A stretch of DNA of 60,137 nt, filler included, from Hausera hauseri (Eukaryota), in the NCBI GenBank assembly GCA_046269625.1. It is 11 parts of 11 records of this genome, joined end to end, with 100 filler letters (N's around TTAATTAATTAA, not from the genome) between each part and the next. Parts side by side here need not be neighbours in the genome. Positions count along the whole stretch, not along the records: positions 46,267 to 51,330 come from JBJURY010347268.1; 10 more parts are not named here. One strand, given 5' to 3'. The translations under genes were made by a program, and so were the position numbers. Shown here one piece after another: positions 17,171 through 56,310 of this stretch (positions are counted from its first letter, which is position 1; the number at the start of each line of letters is the position of its first letter). The notes below the pieces were generated by a model that was not told where the DNA came from, did no database searches, and was given only the letters and a program-made list of their open reading frames with translations.

Positions 17171-18508
17171 TCAACACTTTTGTAATTTCAATTGTAATAC
17201 TTCGACAAAATTTTGCTCCAAGTCTTCCGTTCTGGTTGTATATGGAATCAGTCCTAAATCTGTAGGTAGTACAGCTTCTCCACCGTACATCATGAAAAAC
17301 AGGGTAAATCCTGTTGTAGGATGTGATGTAGTATTAATGACAAATTGTGTACCTTCCAAGAAATCGTCCCAATCCTACTGGTTTTTCGCGACTACTGTTG
17401 ATAAGATTCGTATAACTGTCGCGTTCATTTGTTCAACTAGTCCGTTACATTGGGAATGATAAGCTGTTGTGGTTAGTTGCTAGATTTCGAAAATTTTGGT
17501 AATTTTGTCTAACAGTTCGCTTGAAAACTTTCTTCCTCGGTCTGTCAAAATTTTTTCAGGCGGCCAATATCTGCAAATAATTTTCTGGACTACTACTTCT
17601 GCCAGGGTCTCCGCCTTTGGGTCTATTAACGCTATAAACTCGACAAAATGAGTCAATTGGTCTACACAGGTCAAAATATATTTATTTCTTTTGTGAGACG
17701 TAGATAACGGTCCTACAATATCCATGGACATTGCTTGCATTGGTCTGTCTGGCACATTGATGAGTTTGAGCTCAGCGATGTAGTTTTTCACTTTTCTCTG
17801 TTTGGTTGCGCATACTTCACAAGCATTCACCCAATTTCTTACATCGATGTAAATGCTCGGCCAATAATATTTATTTAATATTCTTCCCAATGTCTTCTTC
17901 CACGACATGTGTCCGGCTAAATATAAGTCGTGTTCGGCTATTAACACTTCCACACGTAGCCCTTTTGGTATGACGACGAATTTTTGTCCCTTTCGTTCGT
18001 AGTACAACACATTTTCGTGATTAAAATCTCCTGCAACGCAATATTTGTGACCATGTCGTTGTAGGTATTTCCATAACTGATGACTTTTTGGTGTTTTGTT
18101 GGTATCAACGAACTCAACAATTTGTTGTATAACTTTGTCTTTTCTCTGTTCGACAGAAATCTTTAATGCCTTATCCAGTGTGAGAGTCCGTTGCCTCTCT
18201 ACTAAGTCTTCAAGGTAGGCTTTCCTCATTACCGTAACTGCGCTTGTTTTAGTTTTAAGTCTTGACAATGCATCGGCGTCGACATATTTATTTCCGGGCT
18301 TGTATTGGAATTCAATATTGTAACGTGAGATCTCCTCTATCCATCTGTTGAGTCTACAGGTCGGATTATTTGCTCTACCCTTCAAAGTCGTAACTGCCTT
18401 ATGATCAGTTACGATTACGATCTTTTGTCCATAGACGTACACGTTAAAATGTCGCAGGGCTTCCTTCACCGCTAACGTTTCCAACTCCGTTACAGAATAG
18501 TTCTTCAC
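17171..18508 (-). pseudogene. RNase H C-terminus and integrase
   Basis: TDHKAV, ADALSR, HD...GH...YYWP...CEVC, MDIVGPL, ILTDRG. Confidence 0.95.
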
Positions 18509-18576
18509 GGCTTTCTTTAAAGAGCGTCATCCATATGCGATCGGTTGTTCTAGCTCCTCGTCTTCTCGTTTCTGAG

Positions 18577-19471
18577 CTAATTCATACCCAATGCCTTACT
18601 GGCGTCTGTTTTGATTATGAACGGCAGGTTGAAGGCAGGATATCTTAAAACGGGTTCACCATTTAGAATTTTCTTCATTTCATTGAAGGCTTTCTGTTCA
18701 ACGTCGAACCATTTCCATTTGATCCCTTTTTTAAGCAAGCGGTACAAATGTGCGTTTATCTTTGAATTGTCTGGTACATAGGTAGCATAATACCCACATA
18801 ACTCCAATTAGTGTATTAATTACCTTTGATTCTGGGGTTTTATGCAGTCCGATATTTTATTTAGAAAGGATTTATCCGGCTTTGATCTTCCTTCTCCGAC
18901 TATATGTCCAAGATAAGACACAGCATTTTGAGCCCATTTGCATTTCTTAGGATTTAGTTTTAATCCAGCTTGCTCCAATCTCATGAGTGTACCCTCAATA
19001 TACTTTAAATGACCCTCTTCCGTTTTTGACACAATCATGACGTCATCTAGGTAAGCGAACGCGTGTTCTAGTCCCATTAGCATCTTGTTCATCATGCGGG
19101 TAAAGATGGCTGGTCCGGTCGTTATTAAATTCGTATATACCGTCGTGTGTCTCAAACGCGGTTTTGTAACAATCTTCCTCTATCTCTACTTGCCAATATC
19201 CGGATTGTAAATCAATTGTGGTGAACCATTTAGCTCCAGAAAATCTATCCAGAGCTTCCTTTACCGATGGTAATGGAAAGGAGTTTTTCATCATAAGCGT
19301 ATTTAACTCTCGATAGTCGATGCAAAATCGGTGCTTAGTGGTACTTTTCTTCTTAACCATGAGGATAAGTGAATACCAAGATCTATAGCTTGGTCTGATT
19401 ATATCGGCCTTCAGCATTCGTTCAACCTTTTTGGTTATCTCTGGCCTTAACGAGTGTGGATGGGGTACCAT
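18577..19471 (-). pseudogene. Reverse transcriptase / RNase H N-terminus
   Basis: IDLQSGYWQV, KTAF, AYLDDVMI, YLGH. Confidence 0.95.
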
Positions 19472-20330
19472 TTCGGCATCTTTTGCTCCTCTAAATCTAT
19501 TTCATCGTTGGACACAGGCTTTTTCTTAAGTTGGATCGCGAGTCTTAAGGCTTTAGCTCGGCCAATATCTTCGTCTTTAGCAATGACCGAACTATGACGA
19601 CAAAGTAATTCATAAAATCGACAGTATGATTCTGGTGAAAATTTAGTTTTAACGTGGGGTGGAAATTCAGTACATTTATAAGGTTTCTCTTCGATGGTAA
19701 CTGCCGGTACTCTATACGTGTGTCCCAAAGTAGTATTGGCATATAGTTTGATAGGGGTGGGTGCATTATTCGCTACCCTGATTGGTACGCGCCCTGCTGA
19801 TACTATCGTTAAAACATTACTGATTACGATGTTCGGATTAAGAGATTCCTTCGGCTCAAAATATACTGGCTGATCATCATCTTGACGTATCTGAGCATAT
19901 ATTAATATTTCGGTTCTGGGTGGTATGTTTTCATCCACGGGAAACCACACTTCTCCGAATTTTCTGTCTTTAGTGGTTTTAATTCCTTTTATTGGGCCAA
20001 GTTCTATCAATTTCCCTGCATTGAAATCTATCGCTATGTTGGGTAGTTGTCTCAATAGATCGCACCCCAATACTACATCATCCGTTAGTTTCTCCATTAT
20101 TGAAAATTCATGATAAAAAGATTGTCCCATAATACGAATTTCTGGTCTCCATCGGAATTTGCTTTTAGACGATTGATCGAAGGCTTCGACACTTCCTGGG
20201 TCTGTTGTGGGAGATGGATATAATTGTTTCCGTAGGAATTGCGGTATTGAATCATACTTTATCAGTGATATTCTGAATCCTGTATCTATCAGTGCATAAA
20301 CGTCCCAATTTTTGCGAAGGGCCTTCTTTC
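19447..20330 (-). pseudogene. Aspartic protease and PR-RT spacer domain
   Basis: YALIDTG near 20280-20300; VVLGCDLL. Confidence 0.85.
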
Positions 20331-20854
20331 GATTACCGTACCGTAATAACTTGGTGCTATTTGGGGTGTCGTATCGTGGACACTTTGTAGCCGTTGATGG
20401 TAACTTCGGTGGTTCCGACTGGCTGATCGATTAATTGCCTTAACTCTCCAATTGGGTATAGTTAGTTATTCATACCATTCGCGTTTTCTGTTTCTTGTTT
20501 TCTAACTGGTAGCTGGATTTCTTGGTTTCTGAAATGGTGTTTCGCGGCTTCCGGTAAATGTTCACTGCCTTTCGTTTGGTTTAGGTATTCTAGGTGAATA
20601 AATAATACCGTGATCGTCGAATGCTAAGCGACGATGTGGGGCAGACGTCCTTTCCATTTCGTGGATCTTACGCAATATCCCGTAGCGTTTTATTCCTTCG
20701 TAAGGATCCTCTAGACTAAACGGCTTCCGATAGATCCCTGTCTGAAACGAACTCATAGATTGTTTCTCACAGTCTTCATATATAAGTGCCGTTGGCAGCA
20801 GTACTGGTAATGGTAGTTTAATAGCAGAGTAGTTTTGTGCCTGTTCGACTTGGA

Positions 20855-21017: not shown

Positions 21018-22871
21018 TTAATGGGTCATAATATCTGTTAGAATCTTACACCAGAATCCTGTAAAAGTGAATATCTCGTATCCATTTATAATCTCTTGAA
21101 TTATTGCTTTGACCAGTTGAATCAAGAAATAAATTGCTAGGAATCCTGATGAGGCTTGTCCAAATATCAGGAATCTCCCCCAAATTTTATACAATATTTC
21201 TGTAGTTACTCTTCGGTAGTAGTTGACACCGAGCAATGATTCCCACTTCGCTTGATAACGCGAGTCCTCTAGTATTGTATGCATCACTCTGTTTAATTGA
21301 TGTATGCGCTGACGGGAGAAAGCAAGGAACTGTCTGAACGCCTGTACTTCCTTCGGTCGGGAAATCCCCTTTGCGGCGGTATCTTGAAATTTATCATCGG
21401 TTATTCCTTTTATTAAATTTTTTCCGGTTAATTTGGTCGGTGGCATAATTATTCCGCCGTTTGGTAAACTTACCCAATCGGTTTCACTACGCCTGAACAT
21501 CGGTTCGCATAGGGTGGACATGCGGTCTCTCAAAATTGTCGGCTGAGCAGAGTTTGCCAACAATATTCTAGTAATTGGTGTTACTAACCTTGGTACGTCT
21601 TGGTATATTACTGGAAGTTTCTGTATACACCTCTTCTCTTCCATATTAATAGGTACATCTTTCTTTTCACATTCGTAGGTCAGTAGGACTTCTCCGGTTA
21701 CCCGTCCGAAAATGCATTCTTTCAATGGAATTATTGGTGATGCTAATTCAGGATTAGCATATGTTAAAGCCAGTTTACTCCGCATAACTTCCAAGTCCAA
21801 TTTGCAGTCATTTGTTATCATTTTGTGATATAAATCGGCTATTCCTGCTTGTGCTTTGTAGCAGAAATAGTCGTCTCTGTTTTTCAAATAATCTTCAATT
21901 TGAATATCTTGAGTCTCGAGCTTAAACGTCCTGGCGTTTATCGCCGTCTTAGCTACAAAGGATGCTTCACAATTGGTGGAGTACATTATGATATCGCACC
22001 TCGTGAGTACATTTTTCTTCACAAATTTTAATCCATTAGTGTCAGAAATCAGTATTCTGGGTGTGGACTGTTCGGTTAAATATTCTCGTGTTTTAGAGTT
22101 AGTTTCCGTGCTATTTATGTATTGTTTCCCTGTCGTTTCATTAAACTTAAGTTCTCTAATTCTGATAAAATAGCAATCGGTCTTGGCTGAAAGTTCCCAA
22201 ATTACCACGGAGCTTTTGAAGGAGCAAGTATCGTCCTGAATGTGGCACTTCTGGTTTTCCGTGTGAAGCTTAGTAACGCTATGGAACATTACCTTTTGTA
22301 GGCGAATTTCAATTTCGTAAAAATCTACTACTACGATGTTAGACTTTAGCCCTTTTCCAGTATCGTATTCTGCGCCATTACAATGTCCGGTGTGCATATC
22401 TAGTCTTCCAGCTGCCACTTTATATACTCTGATTATCTTTTCTTGTTGCATTTCCAATTCCATACCATTTCATTTTAATCTTCCAGTCTCTCTAGCTTGC
22501 TTACAATGCTAACGTTCCAAGTTCATCGGAACTGGTGGGTTTGTTGGCTTGACTAGCGATGAATGCCCATGTACCAATCCGCAATGGAAAATACTGCGAG
22601 ATCGTCGCAACATACATTCTATTCCGTCTAATGTAACTAATTCGCGTTGTTGGTACAGCACGTAATTTTTCTCTTTTGTTTCTAGTTTATGTGGTCTCGC
22701 ATCTTCACACATTTCTAAGTCCATTAATGAGTATTTTTGGCCAAGTTTAAATTTGTCGCATTCGTACACTGTAACTGCACCCATTTGACTTATTAAAATC
22801 ATCACGGTTAAGAAGTTAATTAACCAGTTTGGCTCGTTTCCTCTATTATTTCCGGTTACGTTTCGTAACAA
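21018..22871 (-). pseudogene. Chuvirus-like (class III-type) envelope glycoprotein, retroelement env
   Basis: Signal peptide, then VYEC...YSL..LEMC...YQQ...IEC...IFHCG..HGHSS...G.C.G..Y...NIVV...C......C......W......C; C-terminal WGRFLIFGQASSGFLAIYFLIQLVKAII..IINGY hydrophobic region. Confidence 0.8.
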
Positions 22872-25401
22872 GTCTTCAAATCTATTATTGCCAAGAAGGG
22901 CCTATTTTGATGTTCTTCTTCTTTTTCAAATAATTTGGACCAGTTTACTTCTCGGGGCAATTTCCTGGCAGCCTTCCTTGCCAAGCTAATGGTCTTATTA
23001 AATTCGTTTTCTCGGACCCGATTGATTTTAACGGCCAAATATAGCAACACTTTTCTTAACTTCTCCATGGTGTTTTCTACCATAATCTTCTCGATTACCA
23101 CTGCATCGCTTAAGGTGCTTCTGGATAATTTACACCGAAAAATTTTCATGGCTTTGGCTGCATTAAATATAGCCTTCTCTTTCTCGTTTAGTATATCACC
23201 ACTGAGACTAGAGTGGTTTACTATACGTATCAATTTTTTCATGAGTTCATTCAGTTCTTCGTCATCTGCACTGAAGGTCGGTACGGAAATTTGCCTCAAT
23301 TCTCTGATTAAGTCCCCATTATAATCGATTTCTTCTCGTGTCTTTCGCGGCCTACCGACAGGATGCTTCTGTTTTGTTACAGTCGGTCTGGTATCAATGG
23401 TTGGTACTAGATTCTTATCATATTGTTCCTTGTCTTCATCTGTTTGCAAGTATTCGAAGTACATTGCTGCATCTCGAACTCCTACAATTCGTCCTACCCA
23501 CTGTTCAGTCTTTGCCTTTGGTGGCCTCTTCTTTTGTTTTGTCGGTGGGAATTGTTACTACTATCCGGTTTGCTTCGTCTGGAATAATTCCAACTTCTAT
23601 TAGTAGTTCCAGTTCGTCTAATATTCTTCCTCTAAAATGAAGTCTACAGTTCAGCTCACTTGTATGACCATTACTCCTTAATCACAGTGCTACATCCTTC
23701 ACAAGAGAACGTGTAGTAAACTCGTGCTTCTTCTGATCCATTCAGTCAAACGTTATTCTTACTTTAATCGTCTCTTCGGACCTTGTCTTTAAGAATTTAG
23801 CATATTCTTTGATTAAAAGTTTTGGTGCGGCACTATAAATCGTAACTTCGCTGGCTAATTTAGTTAGGGTGGGAACTAACCGCCTTAACTGATTTTCGGT
23901 AAGGTTTGCATTGATTAACTTAATTAGATCCTTTTCAGTTTGTGATGAGTCCAGAAGCATCTCCACACTAAATCTCTGATCTGGTGGACACGTCTCCGTT
24001 TCGTACAAGTGCACGGGAGTTTTCGGGTTTTCGGCGAATATTGATTTAGATACGCGTCCCATTTGTTTTCGATTTCGGGTAGTCCGAAATCAACCTCAGG
24101 AGTTTCTAACGGCCGGACTAAGTTCTCATCTTTTATTGATTCTCTTAGTTTCCGTAGTTTTTGTTGCATTATAACCATTTGTATGGTTCGGAAACAACGT
24201 CCATTTCCAGAGGTTTGGCGTAATACTGTTAGCAGCTGACATAATTCTTCGGCTGGTATAAATCCTTGTTCTTGATAATTAGTTAGCTCAGAAGCTACAT
24301 CTCTTTGCCATTTTTGCACAAATTGTGACTTCTCAGGCTTTTCTGCTTCTATAAGAGCATACTTATTTTTATACATTTCGAGTTCTTTAGTTAGTTCGTC
24401 TAATCTTACCACTCTCTGTTTGGTTTTAATGCAAGTTTCTTCAATTTGTCGTATCTGTGGCTACAATTATCTTATTTTCTCGTCACTAATTTCTGCTATT
24501 TCCACCATCAGCAGTGCTAATTCATGCATCTCATTAATAATTTTTGAGTCTGGGTCTATTTCATCAAGTAATCTTTTTACAAACTTGGCCTCTTCAAAAT
24601 TAAGACGGTGGTCGTTCCTTACTTTAGTCAGTTTGGTACCATACCTTTGGTCTGTTCCAGCCATCCTTTCTCAGGGGTGGTGTAAGAACGTCACTACTTC
24701 GAGGGTCGACTGATATTCTTGGCAAATGTCTAAAGTTCTGAGATCTCGAACCAATATCTCCTCAATAGGTTTGGCTGTTAGATGTTGGATTCCTTCTAAG
24801 CGGATATTTCTTAATCTTGGATAAAAGTCACTAGTTAAATTCCGTTTTTGTATAAAATTTGTTTCTTCTGTCATTTTATATATATATATATATCATCCAG
24901 CATCTTCATTTCTTGCTTCTTTTTTATAAAGTTTAATTTACGTAATGCATCGAATTGGGTCCGGACGTCAATCTCTACCTTCATCGTATTTAAATTTCGT
25001 GCGTCTTCTATTTGTTTCCTTACTGTAGGCTCGCTCTCTGGAAATTCTTTTTTGCGACTTTCTAGCAGTTTACTCAACCTCGTTATTACTTAGGACCACT
25101 CATTCAATTGGTTAGCGATTTCTGGTTTTGCCCATATTGCCTGGTCTAACGTTTTGTGAACGTCTTCTAGTTCACATCTGGACCTTTAATAAAATCAATG
25201 ACCTGACGGGCGTAGTTGAACTCATCTTTATACTCATCAAACTCGAGGATACAGGCCGTAATTATTTTTTGTGTTTCATCATTATTTGTTTGCATAATTC
25301 TATTTCTTAGACTGCATATTTGCAATCTTTTTTCGGTTTTAATTTTAATCCGATTTTCCAGACTTGTATATTGTTTTGTTGCAGTAGAAGCGATTTTTAT
25401 T
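22856..25401 (-). pseudogene. Fragmented large accessory ORF upstream of env, helical and charged, function unknown
   Basis: Series of adjacent or overlapping co-oriented ORF pieces (25077, 24874, 24664, 24412, 24062, 23464) running into the env signal peptide. Confidence 0.6.
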
Positions 25402-25501: not shown

Positions 25502-27896
25502 TCCTCATCTATGTTGTTTCATATCCTTTGATAAGGAATATATGATATGGTATTGGACAGGATTGAAAACGAATGGTGACTGGAAATGGTCGGATGGATT
25601 AATAGGTCCAGAAGTAATAGTGAGATCACCAAAAGCAATAATAACCCCTACTAGGATAACAATGACCTCTACTATAAATGTAATGACTCAGAAATCGACT
25701 AGAGTTATGAACATAATTAGAGAATTAGACGTAACCGTACAGTCGACGCCACACTCTCTCATCATCACTGTGTCGAATTTAAGGAATACAAATATAAAAT
25801 TTGAGTGTTTCCTTTATAATAGGATGGTTAGTGAAGGAGTTTTAACTCCTGAAGAACCGACATCTGCATGTATGTTCCTAAAAGCCGATACAAACTATAA
25901 AGTTATCATAACAGAGCTAGATGATGAAGGAGGAAAATTACAAACAATCTCCCGTATAGAAAAAACTCTAAGACGGACAATAACAACCCCGAACATTATG
26001 CGTAAGATGACTACCCAAAAGCTTGAAGAAAATCCGAATAAATACCTTTGGATGATCATAGTACTATGTACTCTTTTAGTGTTATTAGTCGTACTTTTAC
26101 CTTTAATAATTTATTACTCAAAAATAAGACGACGACGTAAATTAAGAAAAACCCTAAATCAACTAAGACTTTTAAGAAAAGACTCTCAAGATGAGTCAAT
26201 AGGGGATATAAGTGCGCCTAATATCAAAATCCAACAACGGCAAAACTGTCCGTTAATAAAGGAACCTTCGGCTGAAAAACCGAATAATCCTCAATGGCAA
26301 GATTGTCCATTAACACTCCGTAGCGATGAGAATCGATTAATTAAACGACAAGAAAGTCGAACAATGAATATAATCGTAGGATATTGTACCAAAATCCAAG
26401 ATTGGTCCACTAACTTTTTCGTATCGTATCAGAATTATAAATCAAATTCATTTCGTATTCCTTATTTTGAATCTTTTTGGCTCACATACATCTATTTTTT
26501 TTAGTTCAGCAAGGATCAGAAATCGCGGAGAGACCAAAATCCTTTTACTATAATGTTTTAGACAATCTCAACCAAACCGTCAACAAGGATTATATATATT
26601 ACGGTAAAGCTACATTGATCCCTAATAATCTAAAAGGGCACCTTCTTCAACAAAGGGTGGCCCTGATTATAAAAATGTCCTCAGCAGCGACAAAACTATC
26701 GGACTTGATCGAAGTTTCTAATCGAACAATATCAATTTATATATCCGTAGCAAAAAGCGGATTACAAATTAAAAGCAGAACTCATATTAATGAAATCACA
26801 GATACTTTAGAAGTTCCTAAATTGACTACGATTAGATTGGACAAAAGGTTTTACAAAAATGCTACTTTGGTACTCCGACCGTATGGTGGACCACCCCCAG
26901 TTATTTACATAGAAGCTATTCACAGAGACATCATTCCCCAACCAGAATACGAGAAACCTGTCTATCCTAAAAACCTGCCTCATCTCAATCAACTGACACA
27001 AGGAATATCCTTTGTGAGATTGCCAACTCTTCTGGAAACAAAGATGGTAGTTTTGGCTTTCAATTCAGCCTATATACTAACCCCCCTCAGAAATAAAGAA
27101 AAAACTTTGGTAGAAATAACTATAACTGATATGGAAGGAAATATAATCCTGGACGAATTAGTTACACCTCGCGATCGAGTGGACAATTTCGATAGCCAAA
27201 TAACTGGCCTCAAAGAAATAGATCTTATTTGAAAAACGGATGCATACCAAATTAGAGCCCTCATCCGACAAAAAACTCTACGACAAAATAATTATTGGTA
27301 TGGACATCTATAATTCCAATTTACATCTTGACCTCTTCAATATTAATGCAATCCGTGGAATTAGAGACCTCCTCTATCACGATGAAATTAATCCAGAAGG
27401 AAAACTTAGTCAAAAACAAATTCTTATGAAATTCAACGATATTGTCTATCCCCATCGTACTAAAGACAAGGCTTCCACAATGTTAAATATCTATCGTTCT
27501 ATTAACGAATACCGAATTGATAATCAAATCCTTCAGAACTCACCAATTCCGACAAAAGAAACTCAAATAGAACCTGTCCAAGATTCTATATTAATCCCAG
27601 AACCAATGGAAACAAACCAAGAATTACCTTCCCAAGTTACTAGTAATCAAGAATCTGATATAAATCAATCTACCGAATCTATTGTTATAGATCTTACCAA
27701 GTCAAACAAAAGAAAGAAACAAACACAAGAAACAATAACTCTCAAGAAAAAAATAATGAGGAAAGGAGAATGGGGACGGATAGAATCCGCCAGTTATCGG
27801 TACGATAACGGAATTCTAAGAACCTACCCTTTGATGCTGAGGACAGCATCATCCAAGGAGGGAGGTGTTGGACCAGTTGAGCCGGCTGTTAATTAA
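25502..27896 (+). pseudogene. Retroelement 3' accessory polyprotein: lectin-like motif, FN3-like domain, TM, cytoplasmic domain, inactive DEDDh exonuclease fold
   Basis: YWTGL...WKWSDG; L.ADTNYKVII; TM YLWMIIVLCTLLVLLVVLLPLIIYY + KIRRRRK; EITITDMEGNIILDELVTPRDRVDNFDSQITGL...IIIG...IRD; ends in PPT/LTR. Confidence 0.75.
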
Positions 27897-38662: not shown

Positions 38663-40811
38663 AATGGGACTCATTCCAAGGAAGACAAAGTCGGTTTAGC
38701 ACATTTGTATTTAACAGTAGGGATTTCCACGATTACAAGCTGAAATTTCGCATAGCCGCTTTACCCGCGAAACTAATGGTTGAAGTAACCGAAGAGGAAA
38801 CAACGACCACTTCATTGCCGCCATTAGAATTCAGACAAAGGCCCACTGAAGAAGAACAAGACGCGCACCTACACTCATTTAGACTAGTGAAAAATGACAG
38901 AAATATTAGGATTATCGCGATAAATTATGGGGAAGGAGACGAAGGAAATTATATTCCAATTGAAATATCTATACGAGAAATAAACGGGGCCGAAGTCTAT
39001 TCGAAAATCATTAACCCAAGAAAGAAAGTAGAAAAAACCTATGCAGAAGTAATCGGAATAAAAAGAGAACAGTTAATCCACGGCAAGGATTCCAGATTAG
39101 TGCAAGAGGAAGTAGCACATTGCCTATACGGATACGTCATAGTGGGGTATCAAGTAGAAAGAATGATAGAAAAATTAAACATACCAGCAACTCAAATAGC
39201 CGGAATGAGAGATATAGAGACCCACCCAACTGTGATTGAACAAATGGAAATCAAGGTCAAAGAGTTGAAGGGTCATCTACCGCCGACCGTGAAAGGCCGA
39301 TTTAAATTAATGGTAGAAGCAATGACTGGAGGACACATTAAGATAAGCCGACTGCTGACCGCTAGTCAATTCTCCTAATATCTAATGGACATAAATGCAG
39401 GATTAAAGTAGGAATATGAGTGGACCCCCAGTAATCCTGGACAAAACCTACGAAGTCTCCCCAAACTCGAAGGAATCAGTACACGATATAGAAAACATTT
39501 CCCTCCATATTCCCGCCAAAAAATGTTGATATCACGCCGAAGTGGAATTATCAGATAACCATCCAAGGATTAAAATCCGAAAGAACGGAAGAAAAACTGC
39601 CAACAGACGAGAAGCCTAGTACTAGTTTCGCAACTTAGACGGCCGAAAATCGTGGCGAGTTCAAGGTACCAGAAGTTCCCAAAAAACGCATTAAAAAGGA
39701 AGAAAAGACCAAAGGAAATGAAATCGAAAAAACGATAAAAAAAACTTCCGTCTTCGATTATCTATTCAAGAAAAAGAGTAAAGAAAGAGAGAGGGACCAA
39801 GAACAGGATTGTGAATACAAAAGTAAGAAGCCAACCTGCAAAATGGATGGACTAAGTAACCAAGAGGAACACATAACTAATCAACAAAGAACAAAGCAAG
39901 CTAAAGAAACAAGGGGCGAATAACGGAAATAAATATATTAAGGAAGAAAAACTCCACGGACGATGTACATTACGCCACTACGGAGAACTACCCTAGAATG
40001 CTGGTAACAACAGAATACTATAGTCAACAAAGGATTAAAGAGGCCATGTTTTTCGTCAAATTTATGCCCGCAAGGCAAGTATACGAGAACACTTATGTCT
40101 GGGAAAATCCTAAAGTCGGAAAATACGTTGCTGCTGTATTTTAGTCAAAAATAAATGGCAAACTTATAGTTCCCTAAACAAATCCGTAAAGTTGTTACTC
40201 AAGAAACAATATCAAAAATACCGATCGACTGGTGAAATTCCCGATTTAAATCGAGATACTATCAGCGATTGGACCCTAGTACCCGTGTGATGCGATCCCA
40301 AGAAGAGTTCAATAAATCCAAAACAGAAGAGAATATATGCCTATTTATACCAGGATGAAGAAGGATTGATAATAGAACCTATCGAGATTATGATAAGAGT
40401 TGCTTGAACCACGAAAATTTGGAGAAAGGAGAAAAAGAATGCCCAGTGTGCGAAGCTAACCTCAAACAAGGCTATGTGATTTTGGACAATTCGAACTGTC
40501 GACATAAATATTGTCGAGATTGTTTAGAAAAGTGGATATTAGATAACGGCAAAACTACATGTCCAGTCTGTAGGGCTGAAGCCACACACCTGAAATATTT
40601 TTCAAATGGGATTTATACTAGGGTAGTTAGAATAAAACCATACCACAGTTACGAATTGGAAATAAGTCCCAGAGAAAACCAAGCCAGTACAAGCTCCGAA
40701 CTCAGTTTAAGACAACGGATGAGCTTATTACGATCATCGCGTTTAGGCGTCACCTCTCCTGACACAATGGACACATCCGAGGGTGCCGCTCAAGGAGGAG
40801 AAATGTTATAA
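38663..40811 (+). pseudogene. Retroelement 3' accessory polyprotein: inactive DEDDh exonuclease fold, charged linker, unknown domain, C3HC4 RING
   Basis: PIEISIREINGAEVYSKIINPRKKV......IGI...L..G.....V...V...L.GYVIVG...RD; CPVC-x15-CRHKYCRDC-x12-CPVC; ends in PPT. Confidence 0.8.
40404..40811 (+). CDS. C3HC4 RING finger domain (putative E3 ligase), polyprotein C-terminus
   Basis: All eight Zn ligands and the conserved Trp present. Confidence 0.88.
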   Translation: MNHENLEKGEKECPVCEANLKQGYVILDNSNCRHKYCRDCLEKWILDNGKTTCPVCRAEATHLKYFSNGIYTRVVRIKPYHSYELEISPRENQASTSSELSLRQRMSLLRSSRLGVTSPDTMDTSEGAAQGGEML

Positions 40812-41619: not shown

Positions 41620-44210
41620 TATTTGTTTAATGAAAAACAATGCCTCTCTTAAAGTTCATGTTAATAGATGCAAACCGGCAGCTAAAGAAAGCAAGCTTAG
41701 AAGAGATGAACAAAACACAGTAAGAAGTATTAGTGATAAAGCCATGAAAACAAAGCCAACACAAAAGCTTTATGAAATGAAGAAATATCTCATAATAATA
41801 ATTCTTATGCTTATTTCCCAAACCTTAAGCCAGGTGACAAAACAAAAAGTTGAGCATGCAAAAATTCGATATGCAATAGCTATCAATAAAGATTTATTGT
41901 TAAGGAGCTTACGATACCGAGTGATATATTCGAGTAAAAGCCAAAAATGTATTATATGATATACTCTAAGATAGATGGACTCCGGTTACTTAATAAGAAT
42001 TGAAATGATACCTTACGATGACGGTCAAAGGAACCCTAGTAAACAACAGCACAATTGTGTAGGCCATCCTTGGATAAATGAAACCCAATGTGTTGTGGAA
42101 AATTCATGAATTTATAATGTCTTCCTTTCATAAAGAAGAAAGTAAACTATTATCAAAGTCGATTTACTAAATTAGCGAAAGTTATAAGAGTTCCCACTAG
42201 GCATGAAATGAATCAGACATTACTGGACGAAATAATAATAACACAGTTATCGGCTAGGTCAATCGGGTTTAAAGGTGGAAGAAGTTGTATAGAAGTAGCT
42301 AGTATGATAGAACTAGAATATATACGATGGATAACCATAGTTATAAAAGAGATGAATGCCCAAAAGGGTATAGTTACAAAATGTAAAATAACAGATGAAC
42401 AACAGAAAGTCTGCTGTAATGTCACTAGAGGAAAAATATATGAACTAGACAATATGATTTCTCGAAAGAAATATGGAAAATTTCAAGGCAGATTAAAGAG
42501 GAAAGGTCCAACAATGTATAAGATATCAAAATCGGATTGAATATGAAGAAAAAGGAGAAAATATTTCGATACCAGCTATGCATTCTTCATTGAATAAAAA
42601 GAGTAAAGAGAGATGACTATTTTAATTAGGCCATACGCATCGTATTACCGACAAAAACGTTCAATATGGTAAAACATAACGATCACAGCGGCGTCGACCG
42701 CACTAATAATATCTTTAAAACCAGATCTTGATTTCTCGAAAGTAAAGTTCACATGCAAGATAAGAGAAACAATAGTAGCAACAGGAGACATAACACCAGA
42801 CGACCTAGTAGTACCATGCGCTGCATTAACCCCAAATACTGTTCGACAATACTAATAAAATAGTTTCTACAAAAATTGTAACAGCTCAAACAAAAAACGA
42901 AGTAGAAATAAAACTACCTTTTAAGAAAGCGATTGTTAGCCAGTCGATGACTATTATGCCTTTGCATTAACTATTATCTAAACTCTATTTTTACATTATC
43001 TAACGAGATCCAGTCTATACAGCTCTCCAGGCGTTGGTTCGACAATACCCACAAACATTTATTGAACGCAAACCGAACCAGTATTACACAGTGCTACATG
43101 ACAATACATTCTCATTAAACTACCCCCAAGTACAGCAGATCCCAAACAACTTAAAGGGCTATAACATGGCCATTCCATCAATGGCGCTAATACATCTCAC
43201 AAAAACCACCTATTTCTTTCTAAAGGACCTGATCATTATGCCAGAAAATTATCATTGTTCAAATTTACAATATAGTTGGGACGTTTGAAATAAAAACGAA
43301 AGAAGTAAAAACGATAATAACTGGCGATCTTATAAATCTAGACCAGTGCTACGGAATATCTATCGATTTTGTCTTTGCAATTAAGAATGCCGTAAAAATC
43401 AGGTCCCTCTCCAGTCTAATTGTACTTGGTGTTGGTCATCAAAACTGAAAAATCATGGCCAACAAATCCCGCGTGTAATTGTTTTAACCTCCTCGAAGCC
43501 AACTATCTAAATATGAAAGAAAAATCCTATAGTCGAACCGTAAAAGTTAATCCCGACAATTGTATTATAGTGGCCGTCAAGCTGGCATATGACAAATATA
43601 ACCAAATGCAGCCAATTGAATATTCAGTCGTGAAACCCAATGGAGATCCAGTTTTTTATACATTAATAACGCCTCGACAACGGATAAATAACTACGACAC
43701 CCACGTAACCGGACTAACGGATTTACAGATAGCCAATCAGATGGACGTCCAGCAGTTCTACGCCAAAATTTGGGAAATTCTCACAGAGAAGATGGTCATC
43801 GGGGCCGATGTAATAAACACTATTTCCACTTATTTGAAATGTCCATTACGGAGAATCGTAGGAATTCGTGATATTTTATATCATGAAGAGATTCTCCGTA
43901 AATACCCAATGGATTCTGTTAACCCACGTGAGCTAGCAAGAAAATTCCATAAAACACGGAGCATGCCATTATGAGGCACAGTAATGGTCCAATGTTTTTA
44001 AGCCTTATACCGCACATTACAGTGATCAGATGAAATTATAGATGAGAGGACGGCTCCCGAAAAGGTGTTAAAAACACCACCTACAGTACCTAACAAAAAG
44101 AGAAGGCTAAACATGGAGGTTTTGATAGACGGAGAAATCTATACAATGGACGCCATCCGCTACAAGGCACCATCCGGAAGGACAATTTTTCTTCCACCAC
44201 AATCGTAAAT
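41620..44210 (+). pseudogene. Integrase C-terminus followed by secreted/membrane accessory polyprotein with FN3-like and inactive exonuclease domains
   Basis: VHVNRCKP, then MKKYLIIIILMLISQTLSQ; KFTC...TGDITPDD...C..LTPNT; IPNNLKG; TLITPRQRINNYDTHVTGL...IRDILYHEEI, all homologous to 25502-27896. Confidence 0.75.
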
Positions 44211-46266: not shown

Positions 46267-46722
46267 ACTCCAAACCATTTTATAATAGGTGGACACAACG
46301 GTGAAACATCCTCAGAGATAACCGAAACGAGGAGGACCAGTTTGGCAGATAGATGAAGATATATACAAAATTTACTCAACGAATATTAGGATCGCTGGAG
46401 AAGTGAACTCCTGTCCGAATGGCGAATTTATGACAGAATAAAAGGAGAAAAGACAGAATTGAAAATCGGAGACAAAGTGTGGCTATTAGAAAAAAATGAA
46501 AAGTTAAATCACTGGCCGGTTGCAGAAATAACGAAGGTTTTTCCAGGGACAGACAACGTTATAAGAGTAGTAGAGCTAACACTGAACGGGGAAACGTATA
46601 AAAGGCTAGTGCATAAGTTGAGTAAAATAGAAAATGAGTTGGTTTGGATCGATACCGTGGAAGACGAATCTATTAGCCGGATTGCCCCAAGGAGGGGGGA
46701 AATGCTAGGACCCAATTGCTGA
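46267..46722 (+). pseudogene. BEL/Pao integrase C-terminal region
   Basis: TPNHFIIG, RWRSE.L, KIGDKV, WPVAEITKVFPG.DNVIRVV, YKR.VHKL. Confidence 0.92.
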
Positions 46723-48426
46723 TTGGGGAATCCGGCGAAACTCCGATCGAAAATCGAGATTAGGACAATAAGAGAGTATGTGTGGATGTGTGTGTGCATA
46801 GACTGTGTAAATAGGTATATTTGTACATAGGAGTGTGTAAATAGCTACGGCATGTTGAAAGTATATATTTGTACATAAGATTTAGTGTTTATAATGATAA
46901 TTGTGTGTGGTCCGGTTACAAAATGGGCACGTGTGATTGAAAAATGTAAAAATGTGAAATGCAAAATTGAAATGTGTTATGTAATCGTGACGCAACCCTT
47001 GTGGACGCTCATAAAGACAGAAAAGGAAGAGGAATACATATTAGTTATTAGATGTGTGTGAGTGTCTATAATAGATGCATAGAAAGAAAGAAGAAATAAT
47101 AATCATAAAGTGAAATATTACATATTGATAAATTAATATAGAATTAAAAAATTTAAAATTTGAATTTGATAAAGAAGAATGCGATTATGTTAAATAGGTC
47201 AAAACAAGATTATAAACAGTTATCCAGAATCAGGATATACAAATGCAGTTTCAAATATGAAAGAAGTGTTGAAGGTTCATGGAAGGTGGATGTGGGTCGA
47301 TTTAGAATTAATTTCCACGTGATAACAACGAAGATATTAAGTTTAATATCAAAAAAATGGTCAAAATGGAATTTATCTTCTTTTACTGACAAAGTTATTG
47401 TAATACATCTCTACTATGTTAACGACACAAATATCTTTACTACGATTGTGGAAGAGTTGGTAAATGATAACATGCCAGTTGATGTGATGTTAAAATCTGA
47501 CTTGAGTATACCGACCGAAGATCGAAACTTATGCTGTGGAATACGCAGACGAAATCTATCGACAATAATACTTAGACAAGGGCAAAATTTTAGAGGAAAA
47601 ATGAATCACCTGAGGGATTTAATTGTGAGGAAGTTTTTGTTATGGAATTATCGATGGTTCTCGTTATTATCGAAGGGACATTCTCTATTCGGTAGAACCC
47701 CTGTCATGATATACGATATTCTGTATGTCGTTAGTGGTGATCGCAGCGATCGAGAGAAGCTATGTAAAAGAGAAGGTACTGTTCATTATAATTGTTCTTT
47801 GTATTCCTTTTTGTTTTGTTTAATGGGTGGCAGCAGGGGTTGCGAAAAGCGAGTGCGTATGTGTGTACGTGTGATGGTAATTGATGGGTTTTATGCATTT
47901 ACGTGGGAACTAGATTTCGGGGTTAAGAAGGGAATCGTATGTGTTAGCCATTTTGAATTGGATAAGGAACAATATAAGGTCACAGACGGAAGATGTTTAA
48001 ATGGAGATGGTAAAAGTTATGGGCCTGGCTTAATAGAATACGCGCTTATTGGTGAATTGATTGAAGTTTTTGTGTGTTTGAATGATGAGACTGGTTTATT
48101 ATATAAAAGTAATAAAGATTCTCCAGAAGCAACTCAGGTGCAGATAACTACGAGGATTATCGAACCACCACCGAACCCAGAGAATATCCATTCCTGAAAT
48201 TAATAACAAACGAATCTATCACAAGCACAGAAAATCAAATAAAATATTCAACAAAAGGGAGAACCGATACTGACGTTGAGGATGACAATTGTTGGTATGA
48301 CTGTGGGTTTTGGTAACGATTCCCGATTTGTTCTGGACCAAATTTAATTTGTAAGATGGTAGTTTAATACCCGCATTTGTTGGGAGTTCTAACCCACCCT
48401 TGGAAAAGGTTACGCAACTCCCAACA
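46703..48426 (+). repeat. Long (~1.7 kb) BEL/Pao 3' LTR
   Basis: PPT AAGGAGGGGGGAAA, then TGCTAGGA ... TCCCAACA imperfect inverted termini; duplicated U3 motifs; AATAAA at ~48238; terminal hairpin. Confidence 0.7.
47187..48197 (+). CDS. Orphan ~336-aa protein encoded inside the LTR
   Basis: Uninterrupted ORF (open from 47160) in AT-rich DNA; no recognised domain. Confidence 0.65.
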   Translation: MLNRSKQDYKQLSRIRIYKCSFKYERSVEGSWKVDVGRFRINFHVITTKILSLISKKWSKWNLSSFTDKVIVIHLYYVNDTNIFTTIVEELVNDNMPVDVMLKSDLSIPTEDRNLCCGIRRRNLSTIILRQGQNFRGKMNHLRDLIVRKFLLWNYRWFSLLSKGHSLFGRTPVMIYDILYVVSGDRSDREKLCKREGTVHYNCSLYSFLFCLMGGSRGCEKRVRMCVRVMVIDGFYAFTWELDFGVKKGIVCVSHFELDKEQYKVTDGRCLNGDGKSYGPGLIEYALIGELIEVFVCLNDETGLLYKSNKDSPEATQVQITTRIIEPPPNPENIHS

Positions 48427-55731: not shown

Positions 55732-56310
55732 ATGGAAGGAGTTATCCCTGACCTGGATAAGGATCTTATGGCAGACTGGACATTGATCCAAGTCGATTGC
55801 GACCCACGCAAAAGCTCCGTCAACCCGAAAGAAAAGAGAATTCATGGATATCTGTATCAGGATAAAGACGGATTGGTTTTCGAACCCATTGAGCTGACTA
55901 TCCAAGTCGACCTTGATAGAGATGATTGGGGAAAAGAAGAAAACGAATGTCCCGTTTGCGAGGCTAGCTTACAACAAGGATATGTAATCCTAGACAACAA
56001 AAATTGCCGACATAAATACTGTAGAGACTGCCTCGAGAAATGGACCCTAGACAACGGAAAAACAACATGTCCGGTTTGTCGAGCTGAAGCTACCGAACTG
56101 AAATACTATTCAAACGGAAGTTATACGCGAGTTGTCAGAATCAAACCCCATTATAGTTACGGTCTGGAGACAAACCCTATAACGGTCCAAGAACAAGCCG
56201 ACCTCGATGCAAGAATGAATCGCCTAAGAAGAGAACCCAGAACAATTGGCGCCACCTCTCCTGACGCAATAGGCTCATCCGAGGATGCCGCTCAGGGAGG
56301 AGAGATGTGA
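55732..56310 (+). CDS. C-terminus of retroelement accessory polyprotein with C3HC4 RING finger
   Basis: Intact 192 codons from the gap; CPVC...CRHKYCRDC...CPVC; closely homologous to 40240-40811. Confidence 0.88.
   Translation: MEGVIPDLDKDLMADWTLIQVDCDPRKSSVNPKEKRIHGYLYQDKDGLVFEPIELTIQVDLDRDDWGKEENECPVCEASLQQGYVILDNKNCRHKYCRDCLEKWTLDNGKTTCPVCRAEATELKYYSNGSYTRVVRIKPHYSYGLETNPITVQEQADLDARMNRLRREPRTIGATSPDAIGSSEDAAQGGEM

Follow-up and report, generated by a model that had tools for sequence, protein, structure and literature searches.

An open reading frame (ORF) of more than 300 codons lies in the long terminal repeat (LTR) of a BEL/Pao retrotransposon of Hausera hauseri (GCA_046269625.1), and it raises the question of whether the LTR carries a gene of its own or a part of something larger. 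The ORF was met in a stretch of 60,137 nucleotides, called here the window. A preliminary description of this DNA took it for an intact orphan gene nested in the LTR, with promoter-like elements before it and a poly(A) signal behind it.

Setting of the ORF and Identity of the Element

The host genome (869 Mb) is represented by a fragmented assembly, and the window itself strings together about 11 short contigs, with N spacers between them (noted over 7502-55731); adjacency across a spacer is no evidence of linkage. The contig with the ORF begins at 46267, and its features are collected in Table 1. The integrase and polypurine tract (PPT) that had been claimed upstream of the LTR are indeed present, with DUF5641 (PF18701) found by Pfam at 46390-46719 (E 2e-13) and the PPT at 46689. 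The translated integrase tail contains two in-frame stops (46354 and 46387), as had been described, but the contrast then drawn with an intact ORF does not hold, for 2/144 versus 0/313 codons gives a Fisher p of 0.10. Indeed, a stop-free ORF of such length is expected 27% of the time at the decay rate of the copies.

Table 1. Features of the ORF-bearing contig, in window coordinates.
Feature	Position	Strand	Basis or remark
3′ end of BEL/Pao pol, integrase C-terminal DUF5641	46270..46722	+	Pfam PF18701, translation
Polypurine tract	46689..46702	+	same tract before many LTR starts
3′ LTR, 1423 bp, TG...CA	46703..48125	+	copy boundaries, depth drop in two other runs, target duplications
Non-coding U3-like part, GT-rich, with duplicated 17-mers and TATAAT at 47067	46703..47100	+	each of the three frames has 4.6-8.7% stops; 23 indels/kb
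U3-position motif, candidate 3′ arm of cyclisation duplex	46991..47038	+	complementary to 47800-47844
A/T-rich box directly preceding the ORF's first ATG, candidate for the core promoter or the R region	47125..47170	+	
313 codons encoded in the LTR, probably duplicating the front of the gag frame	47187..48125	+	
Partner arm of the candidate long-range duplex, inside the ORF	47800..47844	+	
Second tRNA-Met box, complementary to nt ~24-38 in the anticodon arm	48016..48028	+	110 nt before LTR end
AATAAA close to the real LTR end, in frame within the ORF	48111..48116	+	not family-wide
Flank, other repeats, not LTR	48126..48426	.	matches to other repeats, depth drop

The element is assigned to BEL/Pao (Belpaoviridae, Semotivirus; PMC8742986) by its domains, which comprise DUF1759 in Gag, RVT_1 (below the curated cut-off), Peptidase_A17 (E 3e-41), Integrase_H2C2, rve and DUF5641; their gypsy-like order, Gag-PR-RT-RH-IN, is taken from ORF maps with hits from different copies, and the protease is unmatched by Pfam. 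It also shares with this family TG..CA LTRs, a PPT, a primer-binding site (PBS) just after the LTR and a short target-site duplication. It differs in several traits. First, its LTRs are about 1.3-1.65 kb long, compared with 0.2-1.2 kb (PMC8742986). Second, the PBS matches the 3′ end of the host tRNA-Met(CAT), whereas tRNA-Arg or tRNA-Gly is typical of, rather than defining for, the family (PMC8742986). Third, CCCH fingers stand in Gag at the place of the triple Cys-His box described for Sinbad (PMC554778, in part); CCCH zinc fingers in place of the BEL CCHC knuckles are seen in L070:5048-5623 (minus strand) and P0010. The tRNA-Met 3′-end motif has 63 matches genome-wide, with a full tRNA at 1 of 3 fetched loci, and it also occurs in tandem at 63-69 nt spacing (G000 C370705, C75905, C212155 and C875904).

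The assembly is collapsed as well as fragmented, as in L081 with its identical ends, and contigs in which an LTR lies between a PPT and a PBS are possibly chimeric. Such a PPT-LTR-PBS arrangement is seen in L022, L073, L074, L081, L112, L117, L118 and L129, and represents either tandem elements that share LTRs or collapsed assembly.

Boundaries and Non-coding Part of the LTR

The preliminary description placed the LTR at 46703..48426, as a TG...CA-bounded segment of 1.7 kb. Its start stands: the LTR opens with TGCT at 46703, and three copies behind other 5′ flanks begin at 46702-46703 (30 loci, first search). The end, however, lies at 48125. Five copies from the same search stop at 48125-48127, and 17 LTR ends, that of the window among them, align at 48125 before running into 14 differing flanks or, in three, the PBS. 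Contigs of two other public runs lose depth directly past the bin of 48125: in one it falls from 1456 to 4, in the other from 33 to 0. Sequence past 48126 matches other repeats, whose copies extend beyond 48426. LTR copies with target duplications had been proposed as the means of fixing the boundaries; 5-bp duplications, with one mismatch each, were found in 2 of the 11 relatives whose LTRs start from a flank, and the copies as a whole fix the end. From the copy boundaries, the aligned ends and the depth drops, the LTR is thus 1423 bp long, and it does not stop before 47160, where an earlier end would have spoken against an ORF in the LTR. With the 3′ boundary at 48125, the AATAAA at 48238, formerly taken as the poly(A) signal of the LTR, and the stop of the ORF (48195-48197) fall outside the LTR and in flanking repeats. 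The same is true of the hairpin at 48379-48426, which is real (z -4.4) but is not the LTR terminus, and copies of the repeat around it continue past 48426.

The elements reported within the U3-like part fared better. The duplicated motifs exist as 17-mers repeated at 46801/46831 and 46816/46864. The TATA-like element near 47067 is present as TATAAT, but among 34 LTR starts only seven have a TATA-like match at +340 to +380. A permissive pattern, used without a control, places an A/T-rich box between +325 and +450 in 25 of 26 LTRs. The U3/R/U5 borders of the window LTR are ones that we infer. LTR interiors are mosaics, in which blocks common to different LTRs stand at different offsets. One LTR (L083, C416033) is 95% identical to that of the window from 47111 onward, and its upstream part is different and about 500 nt longer; it has no target duplication.

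An ORF without a Stop of Its Own

The ORF at 47157-48197 encodes 346 amino acids from stop to stop, or 336 from the ATG at 47187, in agreement with the 336-345 uninterrupted codons first reported and above the longest ORFs of 2000 shuffles (median 53, maximum 146 codons). That a long ORF lies in the LTR of a BEL/Pao element is likewise borne out, and it recurs in the family, with 129 tblastn matches in the genome. However, the ORF is split by the LTR boundary into 313 codons from the ATG and 23 codons contributed by the flank. Since the LTR ends before the ORF, solo and 3′ LTRs are without a stop in this frame. In 14 copies, the frame reads through the LTR end into 1-166 codons of flank, and any product would therefore have no defined C-terminus.

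These observations bear on the idea that the LTR holds an independent gene, which 3′ or solo copies would express. The U3 genes sag of MMTV and nef of HIV have their own stop, are expressed from spliced or subgenomic RNA and are constrained as proteins. The ORF described here overlaps the LTR as they do, is preceded by TATAAT and has an AATAAA near the true LTR end, and many LTRs of the family are solo or bounded by flanks. In contrast to sag and nef, it has neither its own stop nor a fixed C-terminus within the element, its C-terminus being set by whatever flank follows the boundary at 48125; AATAAA occurs at only 7 of 58 LTR/PBS junctions; the frame proceeds into gag; and selection on the protein sequence is undetected (see below). 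A gene of this type is thus extremely improbable, and the claim that each solo LTR is a self-contained expression cassette is not upheld.

The Frame Continues through the PBS to Ubiquitin and Gag

The PBS was located by a 24-nt pattern with 99 occurrences. Among 64 PBS junction rows (136 loci), some of which are tandem units from one contig, 34 have at least 100 open codons running into the LTR in one frame, up to 527, whereas the other two frames never reach 100 (0/64, maximum 56). One of these alternative frames is closed by the PBS itself, and open lengths are therefore the measure. The frame of the window ORF is tied to the PBS-crossing frame via L021, whose LTR is 84% identical to that of the window, and L084. 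The LTR end and PBS are tandemly duplicated in L090, L116, L109, L125 and L088. The repeated units measure 72, 93 or 114 nt, and since each length is divisible by three, the two or three PBS copies stand in frame.

The most complete copy, L118, has 1082 stop-free codons that comprise the LTR, the PBS at residue 378, a leader, a ubiquitin domain at 629-699 (Pfam PF00240, E 1.4e-19) and DUF1759 at 834-974. Stop-free passage from the PBS to Gag is seen in 5 of 34 copies. A GG directly precedes Gag in 32 of 46 copies, mostly decayed, and is missing in the other 14; the tail before Gag usually reads LRLKGG, compared with LRLRGG in ubiquitin proper. No Met stands near the start of the ubiquitin domain in 22 of 24 copies, and the leader of L118 contains 38 out-of-frame ATGs. 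The PBS and Gag are in phase in 16 of 34 old copies (p 0.067 against one third, not significant alone). Within the LTR subfamily of the window, L021 ends 24 codons past the LTR, L084 closes after 91 and L082 is frameshifted; because no stop-free copy of this subfamily reaches ubiquitin, the link between the window ORF and ubiquitin is made at the level of the family. Two ubiquitin types, one full and one shorter and degenerate, occur in L118:2521-2736 and its relatives, with the tail and the Gag start alike. P0008 and P0010 hint at relatives elsewhere.

On the DNA, therefore, a gag frame has its start in the 5′ LTR and includes the PBS, in the manner of Ty1, and a ubiquitin fold ending in GG stands directly before the protein that would be released, which is the sequence arrangement of a ubiquitin processing signal. 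At the sequence level, we regard as established the LTR boundaries, the continuity of one open frame through the PBS, and the ubiquitin-GG-Gag junction.

Selection on the Frame and on the Amino Acids

Selection was assessed from 60 segments aligned against the window ORF, with pairwise counts that share one reference and are not independent. In-frame stops make up 0.42% of codons, compared with 7.5% and 9.4% in the other sense frames and 0.55% in integrase, and 28 stops are observed where 214 are expected under site-independent change. Indels amount to 1.4/kb in the LTR ORF versus 23/kb in U3. The purging of stops is still evident at about 28% DNA divergence. Antisense coding was considered and rejected, with 4.4-5.7% stops in all three antisense frames. 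Stops and frameshifts in the frame of the LTR ORF are strongly selected against.

The amino acids of the leader, by contrast, are under no measurable selection. Mismatches at codon positions 1, 2 and 3 of the LTR ORF are 0.279, 0.285 and 0.277, and the 0-fold/4-fold ratio of 0.89 resembles that of U3 (0.87), whereas this ratio is 0.36 in ubiquitin, 0.21 in the Gag N-terminus, 0.14 in DUF1759 and 0.27 (p0/p4) in the integrase tail, which is thus under purifying selection among copies. Amino-acid identity agrees with that expected from DNA in the two halves of the ORF (observed/expected 0.546/0.546 and 0.508/0.522) and lies within 0.012 of expectation with four other LTR references; it exceeds expectation by 0.09-0.25 in integrase (0.79/0.70), ubiquitin (0.62/0.46), the Gag N-terminus (0.71/0.51) and DUF1759 (0.77/0.52). 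The stretch from the PBS to ubiquitin is close to the LTR ORF, its excess of 0.02-0.03 matching one control frame. A dN/dS-type comparison, proposed in the preliminary description, accordingly gives a divided answer, in which the frame is kept and amino-acid identity equals the neutral expectation. Across 28 element pairs, which are not independent and were filtered for LTR identity of at least 66%, 4-fold sites changed less in the LTR ORF than in gag (0.17 vs 0.36), so that a constraint at the RNA level is present and could mask a weak one on the protein.

The same data can be read in another way, with the leader as a fast-evolving accessory protein (e.g., for anti-silencing or targeting) that is part of the polyprotein and is freed at ubiquitin, and with purifying selection hidden by diversifying selection or a loose compositional constraint. 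Strict maintenance of the frame would agree with this, as would a ubiquitin junction that releases the leader as a separate product. Changes are also slightly conservative in the 3′ half of the ORF (BLOSUM +0.07 to +0.18) and in the L125 block, where position 2 is least variable (0.156 vs 0.19) and the Atlas recognition score is 2512. However, identity does not exceed the neutral expectation with any of five references, nor in the L125 block (0.666 vs 0.669); no column is invariant among 47 stretches; blocks are shuffled among LTRs at differing offsets; the predicted structure is of low confidence (pLDDT 41.6); and the recurring peptide motifs of the ORF coincide with RNA signals, namely the tRNA box and the duplex described below. 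We therefore consider an accessory protein unlikely.

Searches for Homologues, Folds and Host-Gene Fragments

No homologue of the LTR ORF was found at E 0.01 or better among 337 candidates (lengths 172-548 only), and a profile of the 47 stretches gave two matches, both to tandem-repeat proteins and taken as chance. Pfam has no match for the ORF, and its best Atlas score is 0.83, with no family. A radical-SAM match of the L125 block in Atlas (0.92, 116/256 features) was treated as chance, Pfam being unsupportive. AlphaFold modelling, also suggested earlier, yielded no confident fold, the model mentioned above being too poor for a fold search.

These searches bear on a further alternative, by which the element once captured host coding sequence, of which the open frame is a decaying and now untranslated remnant, with Gag starting downstream. 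The capture of sequence by template switching is known (PMC5131818, in part), and the mosaic block structure of the LTRs would fit it; capture may indeed be the origin of LTR blocks. A relic, however, would not be expected to have its stops purged still at the divergence given above, and the stop rates of the antisense frames and the lack of a conserved Met before ubiquitin also speak against it. Pfam matched none of 128 stop-free stretches (all six frames, window and 18 LTRs), and own-genome searches with leaders returned only three matches for L118 and 56 for L125, of which the 14 checked loci align with L125 in long colinear blocks. Recognisable host-gene fragments were thus absent from these Pfam and own-genome searches, although their sources may be too diverged to be recognised. 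On balance, an untranslated relic is very unlikely.

RNA-Level Signals in the Leader

Two signals in the LTR appear to belong to the RNA. The first, the second tRNA-Met box, scores at least 11 at 19 of 49 LTR ends and in 0 of 147 shuffles, and lies mostly 70-150 nt upstream of the PBS. A palindrome serving as a dimer site was considered in its place but is less likely, because the base that follows is the G predicted from the tRNA in 21 of 25 cases and T in none. The other is a long-range duplex between 46991-47038 and 47800-47844 (45-nt motif), with a predicted energy of -53.3 kcal/mol (z -9.6). It was tested in those 12 of the 24 long LTRs that show the motif pattern; in one of them a wrong motif was picked, and another is truncated. 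Of these 12, ten have z below -2, and the LTR's own partner is best in five and in the top three in nine. Local RNA structure was not detected at 47700-48125 (z +1.3). Judged from sequence, the second tRNA box and the duplex both qualify as RNA-level signals in the leader; by analogy, they would fit an LTR in which the first arm is U3 and the ORF is R/U5.

A Model for the Leader and Its Implications

The ORF of the window is probably the 3′-LTR duplicate of the front of the gag frame, which runs through the PBS to a ubiquitin-like domain. Host deubiquitinases likely cut at the GG of this domain, and the 600-700-residue leader is likely disposable. Transcription would begin in the neighbourhood of the A/T-rich box and before the first ATG, which would put the ORF in R/U5. 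The gag frame opens at an ATG about 480 nt into the 5′ LTR, and ribosomes would initiate near the cap, because scanning through a leader of about 2 kb with dozens of AUGs would be expected to fail; the leader would accordingly be kept as one open frame and its product cut away. A host deubiquitinase cutting after GG would give Gag a fixed N-terminus, and the leader, clipped off at ubiquitin, would be free to change in sequence. Reverse transcription would then copy the R/U5 ORF into both LTRs, including the 3′ LTR of the window. Translation of the leader frame and cleavage after GG are predictions of this model.

More tentatively, and less probably than not, the ubiquitin joint might uncouple about 2 kb of translated sequence from protein constraint. 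The LTR would then be a sandbox in which blocks can be swapped while the frame stays open, so that a new de novo polypeptide of 600-700 residues would arise with every Gag, and a solo LTR, with a promoter, an ATG and an open frame without a stop, would be an N-terminal fusion cassette for flanking host DNA. If this holds, the whole family exemplifies in nature how translation can be selected for while its product is not, and offers a path along which de novo genes could arise.

Annotation commonly merges two things that are separated here: whether selection strongly maintains an open frame, and whether the encoded protein matters. In hundreds of divergent copies, stops have been removed from about 300 codons of each LTR, whose amino acids nevertheless change neutrally; ubiquitin, Gag and integrase from these elements serve as positive controls. 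Long LTR ORFs are prone to be called orphan genes, and the system offers a test bed for translated junk becoming a gene. If the cleavage is true, the element has a new way, dependent on host deubiquitinases, of translating Gag although a very long cis-acting leader precedes it.

Comparison with Known Systems

The combination described here consists of known parts, a gag start in the LTR and a ubiquitin processing signal, in a new form, and selection on the frame only is both its best supported and its most unusual aspect. The Ty1 LTR holds only a few codons, which are themselves Gag. In the present element, which belongs to a different family from Ty1 (Pseudoviridae), there are 310-500 codons in the LTR and 600-700 before Gag, all unconstrained, with ubiquitin between leader and Gag. 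The two are alike in that the gag frame begins in the 5′ LTR, though much enlarged here (PMC3522557, in part), and the second tRNA box and long-range duplex recall the bipartite or multipartite PBS within Ty1 GAG and its CYC5/CYC3 pair (PMC4974528, in part).

Ubiquitin in a polyprotein has a parallel in cytopathic BVDV, in which captured ubiquitin insertions are cut by ubiquitin C-terminal hydrolases of the host that define the next N-terminus (PMC8310069, in part). There, the insertions are sporadic and occur in an RNA virus, whereas here ubiquitin is a fixed feature, under purifying selection, of a retrotransposon family, and its cleavage is predicted from sequence. Ubiquitin- or SUMO-like motifs are also present in the polyprotein of the planarian gypsy-like Burro/GYPSM1, in which Gag is N-terminal and the motifs are internal (PMC6431247, in part). 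Rice Retrosat2, another element with long LTRs, has a divergent orphan ORF0 upstream of gag-pol, but this is a separate ORF under purifying selection, with Ka 0.26 and Ks 1.65 (PMC3485330, in part).

Within BEL/Pao, whose replication is poorly understood according to ICTV, the region after the LTR is non-coding (PMC8742986), whereas here it is in frame, with ubiquitin before Gag. Searches of the open literature gave no description of a BEL/Pao element whose gag frame begins far inside the LTR, or of ubiquitin ahead of a BEL Gag; subscription descriptions of Pao, Cer, Max and Tas, Repbase and supplements lie outside this scope and may hold precedents. PMC3118150, searched by term, mentions neither.

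Other Observations in the Window

Several further ORFs lie on other contigs of the window. Related RING-finger ORFs are found on different contigs, at 40359-40811 (by Pfam) and 55732-56307 (by a shared stretch). A weak exonuclease-like ORF is located at 43420-43974 (E 0.14), and a similar-looking ORF at 26471-27229 has no Pfam match; the RING-finger and exonuclease-like ORFs are possibly accessory genes of another element. Finally, an ORF for a Monjiviricetes-type fusion glycoprotein (21021-22901, minus strand; E 3.7e-39) is followed downstream, at 17483-20430, by frames for a gypsy-like protease, RT and integrase, so that env precedes pol.
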